DNA from: a virus
Lineage: Duplodnaviria > Heunggongvirae > Uroviricota > Caudoviricetes
DNA: 6,902 bases
Direction: 5' to 3' (one strand)
IMG/VR virus record: IMGVR_UViG_2711768074_000020
Location: 1-6,902 of that record
Positions 1-6,902 of the stretch are shown here, in pieces (position 1 is the first letter of the stretch; every line of letters starts with the position of its first letter). Below the pieces are notes generated by a model. The model was not told the origin of the DNA. It saw only the letters and a list, made by a program, of their open reading frames with translations, and did no database searches. Made by a program: the position numbers and the translations under genes.

Positions 1-60
1 GAAAAAGTTCAAAAAATCGCTGCCGGGGAGGAAGGAAACTACCGGATGGAAAGAGTCCCC

Positions 61-555
61 CTAAAGCAGACTGACAGACATCACAAATCCCCGGGTGGGG
101 ATTTGTGTATAAGAGACAGCCTGCAACAGGGTGAGAATGGTTTTTAATTGCTCCGGTGAGAGCTGATTCAGCGGCGTCTGACCAAAGTTATGACGGATAT
201 AATCCGTGACCGCCTGACGATTATTCCCCAGACGTAAATACTCCCCTAATTGCGCTAAAAGCTGGCGGGCAGAATGGCTTTTTTGCGCGGCCAGCAGACG
301 TTGCGCCAGATTATGCTCAGCGGCAGGGAAGTGACGCGAAAGCAGCGGTGAATCTCCCGACAGACCAATATCGTGCCTGATACCCGCCCACAGTTCTGCT
401 CTTTGTTGTTGCGTCAGTGAGGTCACTTTCGTCATTAAGCTTTCCAGCGAAGTACGTTGCTGACTGGATAAAGGCTGATTGCCCGCGCCAGACGGCAGGT
501 TATCTCCCTGACCTGGTGGTTGCCCAGGAGGAGGGCCGGAAATAGGTTGTATCAT
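61..555 (-). CDS. Hypothetical protein with Pro/Gln/Gly-rich N-terminus; 3' end reads into an IS50/Tn5-like terminal repeat, so the C-terminus may be truncated or replaced
   Basis: 164-codon ORF in the supplied track; ATG at 555..553 preceded by AAGGA about 6 nt upstream (minus strand); N-terminal low-complexity PPPGQPPGQG segment followed by helical-looking sequence; the last ~19 codons overlap the IS-end-like 19-mer at 101..119. Family not recognised. Confidence 0.45.
   Translation of the reverse strand: MIQPISGPPPGQPPGQGDNLPSGAGNQPLSSQQRTSLESLMTKVTSLTQQQRAELWAGIRHDIGLSGDSPLLSRHFPAAEHNLAQRLLAAQKSHSARQLLAQLGEYLRLGNNRQAVTDYIRHNFGQTPLNQLSPEQLKTILTLLQAVSYTQIPTRGFVMSVSLL
101..119 (-). mobile_element. 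IS50/Tn5-like 19-bp terminal inverted repeat (terminus at 119; element body would extend left, off the window)
   Basis: Plus strand 101..119 ATTTGTGTATAAGAGACAG matches the Tn5 mosaic end AGATGTGTATAAGAGACAG at 17/19 positions and the IS50 outside end at 17/19 (reverse complement CTGTCTCTTATACACAAAT). It overlaps an 11-bp inverted repeat (82..92 / 97..107). Only one end is visible and no transposase is in the window. Confidence 0.35.
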
Positions 556-751
556 TACGTATCCTTATACCTGAAATCTTCGCAAGTATGCCTGGCCGCG
601 AGATTATGGCACACTTGTCCGGTTAACTCTCGTCTCATACAGGTAACACAAACGTGAAAATCCTTGTTGATGAAAAAAATGATGATTTAATTTATTGATA
701 TAAAAGGATTTATATCAGCACGTGTCCACGTAGTGACCACATTTTCGAGTT

Positions 752-795
752 ACAGATAACACAAAGCCCGTTTTCACGGGCTTTGTGTTATCTGT
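752..795. repeat. Perfect 20-bp inverted repeat with 4-nt loop (ACAGATAACACAAAGCCCGT-TTTC-ACGGGCTTTGTGTTATCTGT)
   Basis: Arms 752..771 and 776..795 are exact reverse complements; it lies 27 nt past the stop of the 823..1716 gene; there is no adjacent U-tract on either strand, so it is not a canonical intrinsic terminator. Confidence 0.6.
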
Positions 796-822
796 GATTG
801 TGGCTAAGCCACATGATTTATG

Positions 823-1716
823 CTATTTCCAGTTACAAGCAGCTTGAAGTGGTTTTAGCGCGTTTGACAGGCCGTTTAAATTGAAAGTTGCACTTACAGG
901 GCTCTCATTATAAGGAGTTATTTTTGTATACATTTTGTTTGAGTTGGCTAGTTTTCGGATGAAATCAATGTCATTACCTTTATAAAAAACAGCCTTTGTA
1001 TCTGTAGATACTAGCCAGTTTCGCTCAACTGCTTTCTGTTTATCAAGACGATAAAGCATGCTGGTTTGTTCAAGGCCTAAATATACATCCCAACTAAGAA
1101 ATACTTCGGTTTTCTTTTCTCGGCAAGCTATAAACAGAGTAGGAGTAACCGCTTCTCCAAATGGAGTTCTGATATAATCATCACTTTCTAACGATAAAAT
1201 TACATTTTTCGAATCATCAATTGGCGATGTAGTAATGGATGTGTGCCATTTTCCTACATCTGTGGCTTTCTCTAATTTTGATTCAGCTTGAACAGCTTTA
1301 TCCTGTGGGAATAGTTTATCGTAGCAGTTTAGTCTGGCTTCTTTATCATTTTCTGCTCGGCATTTAGATATCTCAGAAAGATTTGGTTGCTGAGCCTCTG
1401 TTGTTACTGGCTTTTCCGTTTTAGATTTTGAGTTTACAGATGGAGTAAATGTTGGAGAAAAAAAACGATCATAACAAGATAAACGTCTGTCATCATCTTT
1501 CTCATCAGGGCATTGATCTCTGCTTTCGAATTTTTCAGCAACTTTCGTTCGAGTCGGTTGTATTGACTTATCGTAACAAGAAAGTCTGTCTTTATTATTT
1601 TCTATTGCTCGGCACTGGAGTACTGCATTGAAGTTATTATGTTCAGTTGCTGCGTGAACAGGCAGTACACTAATTGATATAAATGATGCACCTATAGAAA
1701 AAATTATATTTTTCAT
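823..1716 (-). CDS. Secreted protein of unknown function with Sec signal peptide and three tandem C-x11-C-Y-D repeats plus a C-terminal ~150-aa domain
   Basis: 297-codon ORF; N-terminal MKN + hydrophobic core + VHA|A signal-peptidase I site, no lipobox Cys; repeats at residues 35-49, 69-83 and 119-133 (QCRAIENNKDRLSCYDK / QCPDEKDDDRRLSCYDR / KCRAENDKEARLNCYDK); AAGGA RBS 8 nt upstream, overlapping the end of the upstream gene (4-nt intergenic gap); AT-rich. Confidence 0.65.
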   Translation of the reverse strand: MKNIIFSIGASFISISVLPVHAATEHNNFNAVLQCRAIENNKDRLSCYDKSIQPTRTKVAEKFESRDQCPDEKDDDRRLSCYDRFFSPTFTPSVNSKSKTEKPVTTEAQQPNLSEISKCRAENDKEARLNCYDKLFPQDKAVQAESKLEKATDVGKWHTSITTSPIDDSKNVILSLESDDYIRTPFGEAVTPTLFIACREKKTEVFLSWDVYLGLEQTSMLYRLDKQKAVERNWLVSTDTKAVFYKGNDIDFIRKLANSNKMYTKITPYNESPVSATFNLNGLSNALKPLQAACNWK

Positions 1717-1720
1717 TTTG

Positions 1721-2053
1721 TTATCCTTTTGGTTTAGTAAGAAACACTAAAATTCCGATAATGATATCGCCAATAACCCATAAACTTCCAATGGTAATTA
1801 AACCTAAGCCTGTACCAATAACTGCACCGGCTTTTTCGGCATCGGATGTAGCATTATTTATTATTTCACTAGTGCCTCCCAGTCCAACTAAAAGCGTATA
1901 TATCATAAAAATATTAAATAATATAAAAATCCACTTAATGAGCTTTCCAAAAAATGAACGCTTAAGTTTTTTTATTTGTTTACCGCAAGCAGGGCAATAC
2001 AATGCTGAATCGCTCACCTCTTTCTGGCATTCAGGACATTTGATTAATGCCAT
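1721..2053 (-). CDS. Small zinc-ribbon membrane protein (N-terminal CPEC...CPAC ribbon, two predicted TM helices, glycine-zipper-like second helix)
   Basis: 110-codon ORF; ATG at 2053..2051 with AAGGAGG 7 nt upstream; CxxC-x10-CxxC at residues 6-23; hydrophobic stretches about 38-58 and 76-105 with G-x3-G spacing; AT-rich; first gene of an apparent two-gene operon. Confidence 0.65.
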   Translation of the reverse strand: MALIKCPECQKEVSDSALYCPACGKQIKKLKRSFFGKLIKWIFILFNIFMIYTLLVGLGGTSEIINNATSDAEKAGAVIGTGLGLITIGSLWVIGDIIIGILVFLTKPKG

Positions 2054-2107
2054 GTAATCCGCCTCCTTTGGATCAATACGAGTTGATATTTGTTACAAAA
2101 CATTTTG

Positions 2108-2135
2108 ATTTTATCAGATTTTTTTTTATTGATAA
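2108..2135 (-). promoter_or_regulatory. Putative sigma70-type promoter for the zinc-ribbon/secreted-protein operon
   Basis: On the minus strand, TTATCA (2135..2130), 16-nt spacer, TAAAAT (2113..2108), about 55 nt upstream of the ATG; A/T tract upstream. Hexamer matching by eye only. Confidence 0.2.
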
Positions 2136-2197
2136 GTGTCAATTGATTAGCTGGTATAGAGTGAGACATAAAGAAGGTCAGATCTGTATCAGTAGTG

Positions 2198-2233
2198 ATG
2201 CAAAAATCCCACAGTTTCATGGAATTTTTGCAT
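2198..2233 (-). terminator. Imperfect inverted repeat (ATGCAAAAATCC ... GGAATTTTTGCAT), candidate 3'-end structure of the Hok-like transcript or an operator
   Basis: 12/13-bp arms separated by 10-11 nt; lies about 80-120 nt past the Hok-like stop on the minus strand; no clean U-tract. Confidence 0.25.
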
Positions 2234-2283
2234 TTAGAGCCGTGAGATAGGGTGCCTTATCGACCTTACCCTGGCAACCGATT

Positions 2284-2305
2284 GACGGGGGATTACTCCC
2301 CCGTC
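2284..2305 (-). other. Stable hairpin (9-bp stem GACGGGGGA/TCCCCCGTC, 4-nt loop) immediately 3' of the Hok-like ORF
   Basis: Perfect 9-bp GC-rich stem 10 nt past the stop at 2317..2315; hok-family mRNAs are known to carry structured 3' ends. Confidence 0.35.
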
Positions 2306-2314
2306 GCGGTTTCC

Positions 2315-2455
2315 TTACTGCTTACACTGTAAGAACGCCGCAAACTCCGCTCCCCAGAAACTCATCCGTATTTCGCACAGCGAACCGTGCAACATCCAGA
2401 TGATGAGGATTACCGTCACGCAGAACGTGATGGCTGTAAGCGATTTTTGCGACAT
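2315..2455 (-). CDS. Hok/Gef (HokA/PndA-like) type I toxin family small membrane protein, 46 aa
   Basis: Translated by hand from the minus strand: MSQKSLTAITFCVTVILIIWMLHGSLCEIRMSFWGAEFAAFLQCKQ. N-terminal TM segment then W-M-x3-SLCE(I/L)-x8-E-x-AAFL-x-CK, in register with recalled HokA/PndA sequences (two conserved Cys). AAGGAG RBS 8 nt upstream. Absent from the ORF track, which appears to list only ORFs of 60 aa or more. Confidence 0.6.
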   Translation of the reverse strand: MSQKSLTAITFCVTVILIIWMLHGSLCEIRMSFWGAEFAAFLQCKQ

Positions 2456-2645
2456 AGCACTTGCTCCTTTTCCGGAGAGGCGCTAACCTTTCACTTGCTT
2501 AGGGTAGACGGTTAGGGCCTCGGTTAAACAAAAGTGTTTTCCGGGGCCTTTCCACATCTGGCCTTCGGGTATTCCCTCCGACCATCAGCCGAAAGGCACC
2601 CGCGCGTAATCTATCGCTTTTTTGTTACTCCGGCAATTCTGCTTG

Positions 2646-2906
2646 TTAATTCTGAGGTAAAGGCAAACTCATCTGATTGTTTCCCCTGTGTGAAGCTGGT
2701 AGCTCATGCCACGGGATACCTTCTGAAGAGTGAACGCCGGAGGCGTGTTTCGATGTGAATTTATGGAAAGCTTCCAGTGTTGAGAAGCATACGCCGCATT
2801 CCAGATTGTTACACTGGTAATACTTTTGCCGCACGGTGTTTGAATCATTTTCCGGACGACTTGTGCGGATACGGGCAGATGCGCCACAAAGCGGACAACG
2901 GAACAT
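2646..2906 (-). CDS. ogr: Ogr/Delta-family zinc-finger late-gene transcriptional activator (P2 Ogr-like)
   Basis: 86-codon ORF starting MFRCPLCGASARIRTSR...YYQCNNLEC: C-x2-C-x24-C-x4-C zinc-finger spacing and N-terminal MF-x-CPLC signature of Ogr; GGGAGG RBS 5 nt upstream; about 14 aa longer at the C-terminus than the ~72-aa P2 Ogr as recalled. Confidence 0.8.
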   Translation of the reverse strand: MFRCPLCGASARIRTSRPENDSNTVRQKYYQCNNLECGVCFSTLEAFHKFTSKHASGVHSSEGIPWHELPASHRGNNQMSLPLPQN

Positions 2907-3014
2907 AGCGACCTCCCTTAACGTGGTGTTGCCGCTATTCTAGATTGTACGATCCCTAATTCCAACTAACAGCTCGCTCTGTGCGAAGAGTGAAAATTGA
3001 ACTTTCAATAGTTG

Positions 3015-3043
3015 TTGAACTTCCATACATCCAATGTGAAAAT
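3015..3043 (+). promoter_or_regulatory. Putative sigma70-type promoter of the cargo gene
   Basis: TTGAAC (3015..3020), 17-nt spacer, GAAAAT (3038..3043) in a very AT-rich region about 55 nt upstream of the ATG at 3098; alternative -10 CATAAT at 3053..3058. Hexamer matching by eye only. Confidence 0.2.
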
Positions 3044-3097
3044 TCATACGTTCATAATAGTTAAAATTTAAAATATTGTATATCAGGTGAATAAAGC

Positions 3098-4120
3098 ATG
3101 GGAAGAGATATAACGCTGTACCCTAAAAAAGCAACTAGAAACGAACTTAAAAATTACCTTGAAAATTTAGGTTTTAAAAGGTGTAAACATTTGTGGGAAT
3201 GGCCCCAAGGAACGTTGAATTACTCTTGGTTTGATGATACGGACTTCAAATCTACAGATGGAGTTTCGGCTGATATATATCCTGTTTCAAATGACGAACT
3301 ACACATATCTGGTAATAAATGGGCATTGCATGTGCGTAATTTATATAGCGCTAGTTGGCATGATGTAAAAATGCTTAATGATGTTCTAAAAGGCGCACGG
3401 AGTCTTTTTGGTGGAACACTTATAGGTGATTATGGGAAAAATAGGTACGCTCCTCTATGGAAGGATTCTAGTAGTCCGATCAGTCGTGGCATTTCTTCAA
3501 TATTTAATCATGTCCATCATGAGATTTCCGCTGTTAAACATGCCTTACCTGAACCTTCTATTAAATTAAACCTACCGGAAGATGGCGGCTTATCCGAATA
3601 CTTTGATTACATGCAATGTATGGATCCCAGTAGAGTTATATATAATGGATTAGTACCTTTTGCGGTTGCTATGTTTGAATATTTTTTCTCTAGAGCTTTT
3701 CAAATACTTATAAAGTACGATCCTTTCGCAATAGCAAAAAGAACATCGTATAAGCAAAAAGTTGATTTTGATATTCTGCTTGAGATAGAGAAAGGAAATA
3801 TTTCAATAGAAAGTGTTATTGCAAGAAATTACACTTTTCAAAACTTAACCCACCTAAACAAAGCATATAAAGAGTGGCTGGATATAGATGTGAGAGCGAT
3901 TCTTTATAAGAAAAAAAGAATTGGAAAATCAGTTGATTTTCTTGAGAATCGAATTTCTGAAATCATACAATATAGACATGGGATAGTTCATCACTTTGAG
4001 TTGGATAGGACCTTAAATCGGGATGGATATATTCATATATTAGATGCGATAGAAAAAAGCATAATTGAATTTATCCATTACATAGAAGGCAAATACAAAT
4101 TTAAATTAAATGCGTATTAA
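3098..4120 (+). CDS. Hypothetical 340-aa protein, AT-rich moron between D and ogr; helical C-terminal region with an R-x4-H (HEPN-like) motif; candidate abortive-infection/defence protein
   Basis: 340-codon ORF on the strand opposite both flanking phage genes; AGGTG RBS about 8 nt upstream; sampled GC roughly one-third versus over one-half in D and FI (counted by eye); motif YRHGIVHHF at residues 292-300; no recognisable Walker or other catalytic motif in the N-terminal half. Confidence 0.75.
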   Translation: MGRDITLYPKKATRNELKNYLENLGFKRCKHLWEWPQGTLNYSWFDDTDFKSTDGVSADIYPVSNDELHISGNKWALHVRNLYSASWHDVKMLNDVLKGARSLFGGTLIGDYGKNRYAPLWKDSSSPISRGISSIFNHVHHEISAVKHALPEPSIKLNLPEDGGLSEYFDYMQCMDPSRVIYNGLVPFAVAMFEYFFSRAFQILIKYDPFAIAKRTSYKQKVDFDILLEIEKGNISIESVIARNYTFQNLTHLNKAYKEWLDIDVRAILYKKKRIGKSVDFLENRISEIIQYRHGIVHHFELDRTLNRDGYIHILDAIEKSIIEFIHYIEGKYKFKLNAY

Positions 4121-4148
4121 GCAATCAACCTTACATAGGGATGACAAA

Positions 4149-4172
4149 GTCCGCTTCTGACACGGAGCGGAC
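4149..4172. terminator. Putative bidirectional terminator hairpin between the convergent cargo gene and D
   Basis: 9-bp stem (one G·U pair) with 6-nt loop, GTCCGCTTC-TGACAC-GGAGCGGAC; T-rich sequence follows on the plus strand and TTTGTCAT on the minus strand; lies between the stops at 4120 (+) and 4241 (-). Confidence 0.4.
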
Positions 4173-4240
4173 CGTCGTTTATGTTTAATTCTATACTGTA
4201 AACTTGCCAGTTTAAGTCTGAGCTAATATGTCTAAGTTGC

Positions 4241-5350
4241 TCACTCTGTTTCTGCTATCCATTCCGGGATTTTTGCCTCAAGCTCAAGCTGTGTGGTAAA
4301 GCCGCTGTTATCAATGGTGTGCTCGGCTTTTGCAATAATCCAGTCCTGATTATCAATCTCGCTTTTAAAGCCTGTTACCGTGCCATGCATTTCGGGGTAG
4401 AGTTCTGCGCGTCCGCGTGCCAGCATGATGGAGAATGATGCGGCTCCGCGTTGTAGCTGCTGCCACTTTGCCGCCGCTGCGCGTCTTGCTGCCTGCTCGT
4501 TCTGATAAGTCTTGCGTAACACAAACACATTGCCTTCCGCGCCTTCCATATAATCACCTTCACGGCTGCTGCTTTTCTCCTTTTTGGGTTTTGGCGGTTT
4601 GCGGCGTTTCACGCTGACTTTTTTCTTTTTCCCGTAATTAAGATCAAGCCAGTAGGCGCGTACACCCGTATACGCCTCGCGGTCAGCAATGCGGAACTGA
4701 TGGCGATCGCCGCTGCTGCGTGTGATGGCAAACGATGGCAACGGCTGGCCCTGCGCGTTCACGCCACCTCCGGGCATGATGAATAACAGATTACCGCTTT
4801 TTACCGTGGTGATTGCGCCCAGCATTTCCGCCATGCGCGTAAGGAAGGACATGTCGCTTTCTTCGGTCTGGTCGGCGTGGTCGATTTCGATATCCATCAG
4901 CATTTCGCTGATTTGCGGTTTCAGACCATACCGATGAGCGATGGCGGATACCACACGCTCAACGGTCACATCATGCCAGGACACCTCACGTTTAACGTTA
5001 AATTCATCCCGAAAATCTGCGCTTCTGGCTGAAACAGTCAGCCTGTCCGGCGGTCCTTCGTGAGCGATTTCATCAACAATGTAAGTGCCTTTTTCTGTCA
5101 GCGGTTCCCCTTTCCAGCCAATGAGAACCGTCAGACGCGCGCCCCGTGGCGGTAGCTGCAACTGGCCATCGGCATCATCCAGCGTGATGGTGAGCTGGTC
5201 CGCCTCAAATCCCCGGTTGTCGGTCAGTGACAGGTTCATCAGGCGTTCTGCCACGCCGGACAGCGTTTTACCCTCGGCGAGAATATCAAAATCCGGCATT
5301 TTCACGGGGTCTGTGCCCTGACTGAGCAATTGCATGGTGGTGTCGGTCAT
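4241..5350 (-). CDS. D: P2 gpD-like tail protein (late control gene D / gp27-VgrG-like baseplate hub family)
   Basis: ORF track gives 4241..5482, but the ATG at 5350 has a strong GGAGGGAG Shine-Dalgarno 3 nt upstream, whereas the 44-codon upstream extension is Ser/Thr/Arg-rich with no RBS. The 369-aa product is close to P2 gpD in size; motifs such as ESDMSFLTRMAEMLG resemble the gp27/VgrG N-terminal hub fold; same strand as and adjacent to ogr. Confidence 0.7.
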   Translation of the reverse strand: MTDTTMQLLSQGTDPVKMPDFDILAEGKTLSGVAERLMNLSLTDNRGFEADQLTITLDDADGQLQLPPRGARLTVLIGWKGEPLTEKGTYIVDEIAHEGPPDRLTVSARSADFRDEFNVKREVSWHDVTVERVVSAIAHRYGLKPQISEMLMDIEIDHADQTEESDMSFLTRMAEMLGAITTVKSGNLLFIMPGGGVNAQGQPLPSFAITRSSGDRHQFRIADREAYTGVRAYWLDLNYGKKKKVSVKRRKPPKPKKEKSSSREGDYMEGAEGNVFVLRKTYQNEQAARRAAAAKWQQLQRGAASFSIMLARGRAELYPEMHGTVTGFKSEIDNQDWIIAKAEHTIDNSGFTTQLELEAKIPEWIAETE

Positions 5351-5507
5351 CTGCTCCCTCCCTGTGTGGCATGGTCGCATGTGCGTGCGGAGGGGGTTAC
5401 TGCTTTTTGTTGTCGCCGTGGCGGGAGAACGGCGCAGGGGTGAGATTACGCGCGTGGTGGGTGATGATTGTTGCCGAATCATTTAACGGATACAAGGGGC
5501 TGAAGCT
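5351..5507. promoter_or_regulatory. Divergent intergenic region between D (-) and FI (+), presumably carrying late promoter(s)
   Basis: 157-bp GC-rich spacer between two divergent start codons, each with its own RBS (AGGGG 8 nt upstream of the FI ATG). No clear TGT-N12-ACA Ogr-type dyad was seen by eye. Confidence 0.3.
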
Positions 5508-6692
5508 ATGAGTGAAACTCGTTTTCATGGTGCCCGTGTTACGGAAAATACCGACCTGGTAACAGCGATTAACGATGTTGATTCCAGCGTTATCGGTATC
5601 GTGGTAACGGCGGATGATGCGGACGCGAAGCTGTTCCCGCTGAACAAGCCCACACTGCTGACCCGCGTCAATGACGTGCTGGGAAAATGCGGAACAACGG
5701 GGACGCTTTATCGTGCGCTTAAGGCCATCGCAGACCAGGTGAGCACAAAGGTGATCGTCGTTCGCGTGGCTGAACACAAAGAAGAAGACGAAAAGACGCA
5801 GGATCAACTGGTTATCGGTGGTTCTGAGGATGACGGCAGCTATACGGGGATGTATGCGCTGCTTGTTGCAGAGCAGGATGAAAGCATCGGATACCGTCCG
5901 CGTATTCTGGCCGCGCCGGAGCTGGACACGGAGGCGGTGACAAAATCCCTGTGCGTGATTGCGGGTAAACTGCGCGCATTTGTGTATGCCTCATGTCACG
6001 GCTGTAACACGATGGCTGAAGCGATTACCTACCGCCAGAAATTCAACGAACGTGAAGTGATGCTCTTATGGCCGGACTTCATCGCCTACAACCCGAAAAG
6101 TGGCGAAAACGAAACGTTCCCCGCGCCTGCTTATGCGTGCGGCCTTCGTGCGTACATTGACCATGAGCAGGGCTGGCACAAATCGCTGTCCAACGTTCCG
6201 GTTAAAAATGTGCTGGGGATGTCGAGGCATGTGTTCTGGTCGTTGCAGGCCGAAGACAGCGATGCCAACAGCCTCAACAACAAAGAAATCACGACCATTA
6301 TTCGTCGCAACGGGTTCCGCTTCTGGGGCAACCGCACACCGGAAACGAACGCCTACATTTTTGAGGTGTATACCCGAACCGCACAGGTGCTGGCTGATTC
6401 AATTGCGGAAGCGCAGTTTGAAACCATCGACAGTCCACTGACGCCTGCGAACGTGAAGGATGTTATCAGTGCCATCAGGGCAAAACTGGATTCACTGGTT
6501 ACTGCCGGGAAACTGATTGGCGCAGAGTGCTGGTATGACGTGGTGGATAACAGCACCACGGATTTACGTCAGGGGCGTGTGCGTATTCGCTACAAATATA
6601 CGCCCGTTCCGCCACTGGAAGACATGGAGCTTTACCAGACGTTTACTGATGAATACTTTGAACCCGCATTTGCGGTGCTGGGAGGTGCCTGA
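5508..6692 (+). CDS. FI: P2 FI-like contractile tail sheath protein
   Basis: 394-codon ORF; motifs FPLNKP, GFRFWGNRT, YTRTAQV, HEQGWHKSLSNV and YKYTPVPPLED match the recalled P2-family tail sheath; the stop overlaps the next start (TGATG). Confidence 0.85.
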   Translation: MSETRFHGARVTENTDLVTAINDVDSSVIGIVVTADDADAKLFPLNKPTLLTRVNDVLGKCGTTGTLYRALKAIADQVSTKVIVVRVAEHKEEDEKTQDQLVIGGSEDDGSYTGMYALLVAEQDESIGYRPRILAAPELDTEAVTKSLCVIAGKLRAFVYASCHGCNTMAEAITYRQKFNEREVMLLWPDFIAYNPKSGENETFPAPAYACGLRAYIDHEQGWHKSLSNVPVKNVLGMSRHVFWSLQAEDSDANSLNNKEITTIIRRNGFRFWGNRTPETNAYIFEVYTRTAQVLADSIAEAQFETIDSPLTPANVKDVISAIRAKLDSLVTAGKLIGAECWYDVVDNSTTDLRQGRVRIRYKYTPVPPLEDMELYQTFTDEYFEPAFAVLGGA

Positions 6693-6902
6693 TGGCTGTG
6701 CCAAAACATCTTCGCTTTTTTACGCTGTTTGTGGATGGTGAAAACGAAGTGGGTAAGGTGACGTCCGTCACTCTGCCCAAACTGACGCGCAAAACCGACA
6801 GCTACCGGGGGGGCGGCATGATGGGTGCGGTAAGTATTGATCTCGGTCTGGACGACTCCGCGCTTGATGCGAGCTTTGTCATGGGGGGCGCAGTTCGTGA
6901 GC
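6692..6902 (+). CDS. FII: P2 FII-like tail tube protein (5' portion; runs off the window end)
   Basis: Translated by hand: MAVPKHLRFFTLFVDGENEVGKVTSVTLPKLTRKTDSYRGGGMMGAVSIDLGLDDSALDASFVMGGAVRE, matching the recalled P2 FII N-terminus (VTLPKLTRK, YRG-G-M, DLGLDD); GGAGGT RBS 5 nt upstream; no stop before position 6902. Confidence 0.8.
   Translation, partial: MAVPKHLRFFTLFVDGENEVGKVTSVTLPKLTRKTDSYRGGGMMGAVSIDLGLDDSALDASFVMGGAVRE

Follow-up and report, generated by a model that had tools for sequence, protein, structure and literature searches.

A probable hok/sok-type toxin-antitoxin locus beside ogr in P88-like prophages of Escherichia coli, as read from homology and predicted RNA folds

Analysis of a 6,902-nucleotide stretch of prophage-bearing Escherichia coli DNA (IMG/VR record IMGVR_UViG_2711768074_000020, positions 1 to 6,902; hereafter "the window") led to the identification of a 46-codon open reading frame that is almost certainly a toxin gene of the Hok/Gef family. 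The locus around it is probably an intact hok/sok-type type I toxin-antitoxin locus, constituting a fixed module of P88-like prophages between the late-gene activator gene ogr and variable cargo by the attachment site (Table 1). The gene itself is already known, both RefSeq and phage databases carrying an annotation for it, and is in this respect an ordinary finding. Its weight as a discovery is small, the family being a textbook type I toxin-antitoxin family of which a toxic variant differing by one residue has already been published. The value of the present analysis is one of annotation, in that a full hok/sok module, comprising a predicted promoter, the mRNA elements and a predicted Sok gene, is placed at base resolution within the P88-like phage backbone. 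Specialists may also find some interest in the absence of a conserved mok frame and in the hypervariability of the patch through which Sok would recognize its target.

Table 1. Coordinates of the observed and predicted features of the hok locus and its surroundings in the window.
Feature	Position	Strand	Details and basis
hok CDS	2315..2455	minus	46-aa Hok/Gef-family toxin; profile matches, alignment, RefSeq identity
Predicted hok promoter	2608..2636	minus	-35 TTGCCG 2636-2631, 17-nt spacer, -10 TAGATT 2613-2608
Predicted full-length hok mRNA	2246..2601	minus	~356 nt; homology limits and fold
tac-like 5' end, GGGUGCCUUUCGGCU	2587..2601	minus	Pairs with 2250-2264 in the full-length MFE fold
ucb-like alternative partner of the 5' end, GGAAAGGCCCC	2543..2555	minus	Predicted
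Hairpin around the hok translation-initiation region	2456..2485	minus	MFE and consensus folds
GC-rich hairpin of the hok 3' UTR	2283..2306	minus	9-10 bp stem; three compensatory pairs
fbi-like 3' element, GGUCGAUAAGGCACCC	2250..2264	minus	Would pair with the 5' end; conservation of the locus stops after this block
Predicted sok promoter	2461..2489	plus	-35 TTGCTC 2461-2466, 17-nt spacer, -10 TAACCT 2484-2489
Predicted Sok-like RNA	2497..2552	plus	Free 5' tail of ~17 nt (2497-2513), hairpin 2515-2549, then UUUCC
Hypervariable patch (Sok 5' tail and target; equivalent to the R1 mok start)	2495..2513		Variant comparison
ogr/Delta-like late-gene activator	2646..2906	minus	Pfam Ogr_Delta, 52.4 bits against a cut-off of 26.3
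Prophage end, att core AAAATCCTTGTTGATGAAAA	657..676		Within the first codons of pdxB

The ORF beside ogr belongs to the Hok/Gef family

The first-pass annotation had given the limits of the ORF exactly, leaving its strand unstated. On the minus strand, translation is expected to begin at an ATG (2455-2453) and to end, after 46 codons, at a TAA (2317-2315), yielding the protein MSQKSLTAITFCVTVILIIWMLHGSLCEIRMSFWGAEFAAFLQCKQ. The good ribosome-binding site pointed out at that stage was recovered as the Shine-Dalgarno (SD) sequence AAGGAG (2469-2464), located 8 nt before the ATG, and both this sequence and its 8-nt spacing are kept in the relatives.

A search with the Hok/Gef profile, suggested in the first-pass annotation, supported the assignment. 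The Pfam profile HOK_GEF (PF01848) matched residues 7-44 of the 46 with 30.1 bits (E = 3.7e-7), against a gathering score of 22, while PHROG 251, "MokW-like host killing", gave a full-length match with 82.8 bits (E = 2.5e-23). The protein was then aligned with 13 characterized or tested Hok proteins from a published table, including R1 Hok, HokB, HokC, HokE, PndA, SrnB and the Sp5 HokW type. In this alignment, C12, T14, L26, C27, E28, E37 and C44 were found in register with Hok, PndA, HokA-E and SrnB, in agreement with the conserved Hok/PndA core noted in the first-pass annotation. The family logo established in a 2026 survey of Hok proteins shows M1, C16, T18, L30, C31, E32 and E41 as conserved positions in proteins of about 50 aa (Escalera-Maurer et al., bioRxiv 10.1101/2025.08.07.668861). 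M1, C12, T14, L26, C27, E28 and E37 of the 46-aa window protein align with these columns, and the N-terminal hydrophobic helix is present as well.

The best match in NCBIfam was the HokA equivalog NF007290 (E = 6.1e-9), with 35.8 bits against an equivalog cut-off of 89, and an identity with HokA was rejected on this score despite the "HokA" name carried by some database entries. Based on these sequence comparisons, the protein belongs to the Hok/Gef family and to cluster 72 of the survey, and is neither HokA nor the HokW that has been studied experimentally. A PADLOC search gave no match for hok or for three neighboring cargo proteins.

RefSeq lists the identical protein, found for example in strain IHE3034, as WP_000078920.1, "Hok/Gef family protein", and at least 1000 public contigs encode it, under this name or, loosely, as "protein HokA". 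Hence, the description of the gene as unannotated was right for the ORF track, but not for the public databases. A 601-nt query around the ORF found matches in 1592 of 5426 complete E. coli genomes, the best of them annotated as "Hok/Gef family protein", and a search based on a three-sequence protein alignment retrieved 254 related loci in IMG/VR. An enrichment of hok genes in prophages had been reported previously.

The coding sequence appears strongly constrained. Among 24 closely related variants of the hok ORF, 14 variant codons were synonymous and 2 non-synonymous, where random change would be expected to give 21% synonymous codons. The frame was intact in all 69 distinct variants examined, and neither an IS element nor a rearrangement was found inside the locus. 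Judging from these variants, the hok ORF is under purifying selection. With only 46 codons, it falls under the usual thresholds for ORF calling and might have been taken for a small ORF arisen by chance in intergenic DNA; this explanation is refuted by the profile matches in Pfam, PHROG, NCBIfam and Rfam, to which the purifying selection and the presence of the locus in the IMG/VR records and E. coli genomes counted above must be added, and its probability is negligible.

Toxicity has been addressed for close relatives of the protein. In the 2026 survey, 42 of 45 homologues were toxic upon arabinose induction, the only exceptions being 19_179, 60_1482 and 69_1540, and the tested set included the cluster-72 representatives 72_1621 and 72_1589 (bioRxiv 10.1101/2025.08.07.668861). 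V15A is the sole difference between the window protein and 72_1621, whereas 72_1589 shares 76% identity with it. According to the text of the survey, this one-residue variant, 72_1621, is toxic, and by analogy the V15 protein itself would be expected to be toxic too.

The hok locus is a fixed accessory of the P88-like backbone

The window is E. coli DNA, and its homology to K-12 extends from 120 to 676, covering flk, the flk-pdxB spacer and the first 23 nt of pdxB. A second copy of the 20-mer AAAATCCTTGTTGATGAAAA stands in strain IHE3034 near the integrase, some 37 kb off, at the opposite end of a prophage organized as pdxB / int-C-cox ... capsid, tail ... D-ogr-hok-(Zn-ribbon)-(TagO-like) / flk. 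The position beside ogr noted in the first-pass annotation agrees with the Ogr_Delta match of the adjacent ORF (Table 1). Of 90 related loci, 83 carry an ogr homologue whose end precedes the hok ATG by 192-194 nt. It had been proposed that hok could be prophage cargo or could mark the prophage boundary. The conservation of the arrangement in these loci and its occurrence in phages P88 and Chuche bear out the first proposal; the second does not hold, since the att end lies about 1.6 kb further on, past two other cargo genes.

Phage P88 matches the window at 2244-2942 and 4227-6902 only, and lacks both the gene at 3098-4120 and the region 677-2243. In phage Chuche, the latter region is replaced by com and a methyltransferase gene. 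The hok locus is present in the phage records P88, Chuche, P884B11, PhiR44_2 and Shae_phiSM, and in 62 loci the DNA beyond it could be sorted into at least 12 groups unrelated to one another. From this distribution of homologous sequences, hok is a fixed backbone accessory of P88-like phages (P2 family, Peduoviridae), flanked by variable cargo. In the literature searched, no description of the association of hok with ogr in P2-like phages was found. The interval between ogr and D is itself the site of an insertion, consisting of a HEPN-like gene.

The hok mRNA has a conserved predicted fold

Transcription of hok is predicted to start at G2601, downstream of the candidate promoter given in Table 1. 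In the divergent relatives L006, L010 and L013 the upstream DNA is unrelated, yet a TTGxxx-17/18-TAxAxT arrangement stands at the same distance from GGGTGCC. In a simple promoter and terminator scan with a threshold of 9 of 12 matches, neither the hok nor the sok promoter was reported, the former being missed because of this threshold. Homology between P88-like, Stx-phage, E. albertii, Salmonella and Citrobacter loci runs from GGGTGCC (2601) to GGCACCC (2250), which sets the limits of the predicted transcript.

The 356-nt RNA has a predicted minimum free energy (MFE) of -156 to -160 kcal/mol, with z = -6.3 relative to shuffled sequences. A consensus fold obtained with RNAalifold on 31 distinct variants contains 111 pairs; 98.8% of the alignment cells are paired, versus about 43% with slid partners. 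Compensatory changes were found at 10 pairs, versus 2.1 expected from column shuffles, and 0 of 500 shuffles reached 10. Comparison of the variants shows in this way that the fold of the hok mRNA region is conserved and in part covarying, as far as folding can be predicted.

The fold-back elements of hok mRNA, which the first-pass annotation had suggested searching for, were found in silico as a tac/fbi-like closure between the two ends of the transcript. This predicted helix comprises 14-15 bp, and all 31 variants keep its core, GGGUGCC:GGCACCC, unchanged. The closing helix is therefore conserved, but its invariance leaves it unconfirmed by covariation. When the fbi-like element was removed in silico, the 5' end switched to its ucb-like partner and the sense-strand hairpin that hides the Sok target opened. 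The alternative pairing of the 5' end is compatible with every variant (99.4% of the cells) and its columns hardly vary; as the helices of the truncated mRNA are almost invariant, the covariation test is uninformative for them and the pairing is a prediction only.

The region of translation initiation is also predicted to be buried. In this hairpin, UAGCGC would pair with GUGCUA and CUCC (2477-2474) with GGAG (2467-2464) of the SD sequence, the A of the AUG being covered as well. Helices 8 and 9, which correspond to it, show pairing in 97.6-99.5% of the cells, and only one-sided changes. The GC-rich 3' hairpin announced in the first-pass annotation was confirmed as a conserved predicted element (helix 19), for which compensation consists of a GC to AU change in 7 sequences, an AU to GC or CG change in 4, and one further pair. 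The simple scan reported this hairpin solely as a terminator-like site of the plus strand. It reported no terminator-like site in the interval between ogr and hok.

A Sok-like antisense RNA is predicted on the plus strand

The predicted sok promoter (Table 1) is in register with a TTGCGC-17-TATCCT stretch on the antisense strand of R100/R1, which we take to be the R1 sok promoter known from the work of the Gerdes laboratory. This block is nearly invariant in the relatives; however, it overlaps the SD sequence of hok, so that its conservation is confounded. The hairpin of the predicted Sok RNA is trailed by just three U. It is predicted to be more stable on the plus strand than its complement in 10 of 10 distinct variants, with a mean gap of 8 kcal/mol, because G.U pairs form on the plus strand only. 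Moreover, the stem is kept through compensatory changes, and two very different versions of it are both perfect. Resting on computed folding energies, this thermodynamic asymmetry is the strongest evidence for a plus-strand Sok. The Rfam sok family RF01794 matches 2442-2601 (E = 1.2e-9; 51.9 bits, under the gathering score of 59). This match lies on the sense strand of hok and consequently identifies the conserved leader without indicating how Sok is oriented.

Probable control of hok without a conserved mok frame

In plasmid R1, Sok acts through the overlapping frame mok, whose translation is required for that of hok (PMC4147584). A search for a mok-like frame had been suggested in the first-pass annotation, and no conserved one came to light in the window and its 69 relatives. 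For this purpose, the three frames of the leader were scanned for ATG, GTG and TTG starts in the window together with 69 distinct relatives, with R100/R1 as a positive control, in which mok was recovered (ATG at -58, 70 codons). In the window, no ORF with an upstream start enters hok, except a 14-codon GTG frame at -5. At the position equivalent to the R1 mok start, the window reads CGU CUA CCC UAA. A UAA (2501-2499) interrupts the frame overlapping hok, which is open only from 2498 and has no ATG, GTG or TTG before the hok ATG. In the leader of the window locus, two ATGs (2585 and 2557) start ORFs of 28 and 24 codons, respectively; the end-points of the equivalent ORFs in the 69 related sequences vary, occasionally falling inside hok, because single-base indels are common. 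A canonical mok was rejected, since only sporadic, non-conserved frames occur in the window and the 69 relatives while the same scan recovers the mok of R100.

As R1 needs mok and no conserved mok is found here, either control differs in this locus or hok is poorly translated. Taken to its end, the latter would mean a translationally silent or decaying locus in which, without mok to open the initiation region, Hok is never made and the RNA elements merely persist. Most chromosomal hok loci of K-12 are inactive, which counts for such a reading together with the dependence of hok on mok in R1. However, a frame that is intact in every one of the 69 variants and whose changes are mostly synonymous is unexpected of an ORF that is never translated. 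The conserved SD sequence with its 8-nt spacing and the absence of IS elements and rearrangements also speak against silence, which we hold to be improbable. Because the hok frame is intact and strongly constrained, Hok is probably translated, under control by another route than mok.

Control of translation is probably not exerted through an overlapping mok frame here, unlike in R1. In the predicted folds, a helix between GAGGC/CUAACC (2521-2510) and GGUUAG/GCCUC (2488-2477) competes with the pairing that sequesters the SD sequence. Binding of Sok would abolish this helix, which may provide a means of control that dispenses with mok.

A hypervariable patch covers the predicted Sok target

The 5' tail of the predicted Sok RNA and its target lie in a hypervariable patch. 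Among 27 P88-like variants, the mean pairwise difference reaches 0.243 in this patch, versus 0.023 in the hok ORF and at most 0.08 elsewhere, and 11 distinct versions of the patch occur in these 27 variants. The Sok variants include AACCGTCTACCCTAAGCA and AACATATCTACCTTAAGCA. This variability could reflect either a relaxed constraint at the position of the R1 mok start or a diversifying specificity of the antisense RNA.

A more elaborate model would combine a mok-free Sok control, in the form of a leader switch between an SD-open and an SD-closed state, with a diversifying patch conferring on each lineage a private antitoxin specificity. We regard this combination as speculative and rather unlikely. 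If it were true, private specificities would stop co-resident or competing prophages from neutralizing one another's toxin.

Proposed mechanism and role of the locus

We consider it likely that the locus operates through the following RNA mechanism. A weak constitutive promoter would drive synthesis, on the minus strand, of a stable mRNA extending over about 356 nt (2601 to ~2246), which would be locked by the pairing of its 5' and 3' ends, with the SD sequence of hok buried in a hairpin. Slow trimming of the 3' end would unlock this mRNA, whose 5' end would then pair with 2543-2555 and expose the leader. An unstable antisense RNA of about 55 nt, transcribed from the plus strand (2497-2552), would pair with the exposed leader and leave the mRNA untranslated or cleaved. 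Once the synthesis of Sok stops, whether through loss of the prophage, shut-off of host transcription or phage development, Hok would be translated and inserted in the inner membrane, and the cell would be killed. We infer the transcripts, their processing, the action of Sok and the killing from the R1 paradigm, the predicted folding and the toxic one-residue variant.

The least certain step is the benefit to the phage. Our tentative preference goes to prophage stabilization, i.e., post-segregational killing of cells that have lost the prophage. Against this role stands the only prophage hok/sok system that has been studied, hokW-sokW of prophage Sp5, which instead brought lysis forward and aided phage release (PMC8621323). 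In that system, Sok is lost after mitomycin C treatment, HokW appears before the endolysin, and the deletion mutant releases half as many phages (Takada et al., 2021; PMC8621323). The locus of the window could similarly help lysis and release, Sok vanishing during prophage development and Hok damaging the inner membrane ahead of holin and endolysin. Besides its agreement with the Sp5 result (PMC8621323), this role would fit the lack of a terminator-like site between ogr and hok, as read-through from ogr might give 5'-extended hok transcripts that cannot be locked. However, the HokW of Sp5 is HokD-like and not an orthologue of the window protein, its effect is just twofold, and the copy in Stx phages that is related to the window locus adjoins lom. 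We regard a lysis helper as unlikely.

Defense against superinfection by abortive infection appears still a little less likely. In this scenario an invading phage would halt host transcription, Sok would decay and Hok would kill the cell first. The study of Sp5 cites a 42% reduction of T4 plating by R1 hok/sok carried on a high-copy plasmid (PMC8621323), and a defensive role would suit the variable cargo that adjoins hok, with its at least 12 unrelated downstream groups, and the HEPN-like gene between ogr and D. On the other side, the R1 effect is weak, PADLOC gave no match, and the title of a section of the 2026 survey states that hok is not enriched near defense systems (bioRxiv 10.1101/2025.08.07.668861). 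Besides, hok is fixed in the phage lineage, unlike the variable cargo next to it. Prophage stabilization is retained, with the same reserve, as the preferred role.

Comparison with known systems

HokA, encoded on the K-12 chromosome, shares 43% identity with the window protein over 47 aligned positions, including the WM..SLCE and AAFL.CK motifs common to both, but it sits at a different genomic site. The hokW-sokW system of the Stx2 prophage Sp5 is prophage-borne like the present locus. [quoted passage not shown] In phage databases, the window gene carries the label "MokW-like host killing" (PHROG 251). The HokW studied is a 51-aa HokD-like protein with 30% identity to the window protein. The "MokW-like" locus of Stx phages was considered as the hokW of that study and rejected, since the primers of Takada et al. 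encode MKQQKAM...DYESEK, which is HokD-like. This Stx-phage locus is the one truly related to the window locus, with 82% identity at the DNA level and 76% at the protein level, and it adjoins lom.

The closest tested proteins are those of cluster 72 (72_1621 and 72_1589), which share with the window protein the length of 46 aa, the MSQKSL N-terminus and the WGAEFAAFLQCKQ C-terminus. This cluster is labeled as highly abundant in the survey, where the tested list holds 72_1621, with A15, and not the exact V15 protein. The survey covers the proteins and deliberately leaves mok, Sok and mRNA structure aside.

With hok/sok of R1/R100, the differences concern location, as these are plasmid systems and the window locus lies in a prophage, and mok, which R100 possesses (ATG at -58, 70 codons) and the window locus lacks. 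R1 Hok is 39% identical to the window protein over 31 residues (BLASTP), the N-terminus of the latter being six residues shorter. The likeness otherwise extends over the whole locus, as read and predicted here. Both share the Cys, Thr and Leu-Cys-Glu positions of the toxin, and the predicted long structured leader, closure between the 5' and 3' ends of the mRNA, buried SD sequence and hairpin after the stop codon of the window locus have their counterparts in R1. The candidate antisense promoter over the SD region of hok and the candidate antisense hairpin lie at places equivalent to those of R1/R100.

Cargo genes and attachment site

The region between the hok toxin gene and the prophage end (677-2243) is a cargo hotspot adjoining attP. 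Of its two AT-rich genes, one has a TagO/VasI-like product, scoring 89.6 bits against Pfam VasI, and the second encodes a zinc-ribbon protein whose C-terminal half is hydrophobic. The equivalent position in other phages of the group is occupied by unrelated DNA falling into at least 12 sequence groups; the related phage Chuche, for instance, carries com and a methyltransferase there. The two long hairpins of this region look like transcription terminators, though they lack a clear U-tract, and the one downstream of the TagO-like gene yields spurious Rfam matches to a microRNA and to rimP-leader.

Features of the prophage end, with window coordinates
Feature	Position	Strand	Remarks
att core AAAATCCTTGTTGATGAAAA	657-676		inside first codons of pdxB
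Long hairpin, perfect or near-perfect	748-799		directly downstream of TagO-like gene
Two AT-rich cargo genes	823-1716, 1721-2053	-	between hok and prophage end
Long hairpin, perfect or near-perfect, AUGCAAAAAUUCC...GGGAUUUUUGCAU	2199-2236		directly past hok 3' end, in variable DNA
340-aa ORF	3098-4120	+	flanked by ogr and tail gene D, both on the opposite strand
Tail gene D	4241-5482	-	ogr and hok lie behind D
Tail sheath gene	5508-6692	+	divergent from D

The 340-aa ORF appears to be an uncharacterised piece of cargo, possibly of the defence type, that occupies an insertion hotspot of the P2 family. It is missing from both P88 and Chuche, in which ogr directly adjoins D. The sole match of its product was a weak one to RiboL-PSP-HEPN (22.5 bits against a cut-off of 28.4), and searches of PADLOC, PHROG and NCBIfam returned no match.

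On the host side, phage integration provides pdxB with a new, phage-supplied 5' end. The annotated length of pdxB is 1158 nt in E. coli IHE3034, a genome with the same prophage layout, versus 1137 nt in K-12. At the outer edge of the window, positions 1-119 match the end of the IS4-like element ISEc13 instead of flk, the junction falling at 119/120; hence, flk is interrupted in the source genome, and its reading frame stops at position 61. Copies of the ISEc13 element reach up to 32 per genome and occur on many plasmids too. The ISEc13-flk junction itself was found in no complete E. coli genome of the collection.

Variability of the hok leader

Among loci that are otherwise 92-99% identical, the segment 2495-2513, corresponding to the predicted tail of the antisense RNA Sok and its target, varied about 10 times as much as the hok ORF, with frequent single-base indels. 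Such variability may mean either that constraint is relaxed here or that antisense specificity is under diversifying selection. As regards the Rfam family named "sok" (RF01794), its alignment runs along the hok sense strand (2442-2601, minus strand) and ends just past the hok start codon, the last positions spanning the first hok codons. As used here, RF01794 detects the hok leader and not the antisense RNA's own strand.

Comparison with related phages and other hok loci

D probably starts at MTDTTMQLL..., about 45 codons into the long ORF call for this gene, and the IHE3034 annotation gives a shorter D. In P2, the order FI-FII-E-T-U-D is co-linear, whereas D and the tail sheath gene are divergent in the window, an arrangement shared with P88 and Chuche.

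Toxins 74-100% identical to the window Hok are also encoded in assemblies of unrelated bacteria (loci L007, L008 and L011, on contigs labelled Planococcaceae MAG, Vagococcus and Xanthomonas pisi). Contamination by enterobacterial DNA, rather than transfer, is the most likely explanation; L007 and L011 lie on short contigs. Stx-converting phages, for their part, carry a second hok locus adjoining lom, as in Shigella phage 75/02 Stx (L006, 2566-2706) and about 190 Stx-phage records. This lom-adjacent hok, so far unstudied, encodes a 46-aa toxin and shares 82% DNA identity with the window hok locus. Despite its database label "MokW-like", it is distinct from hokW, the HokD-like toxin gene studied experimentally in the Stx2 prophage Sp5.
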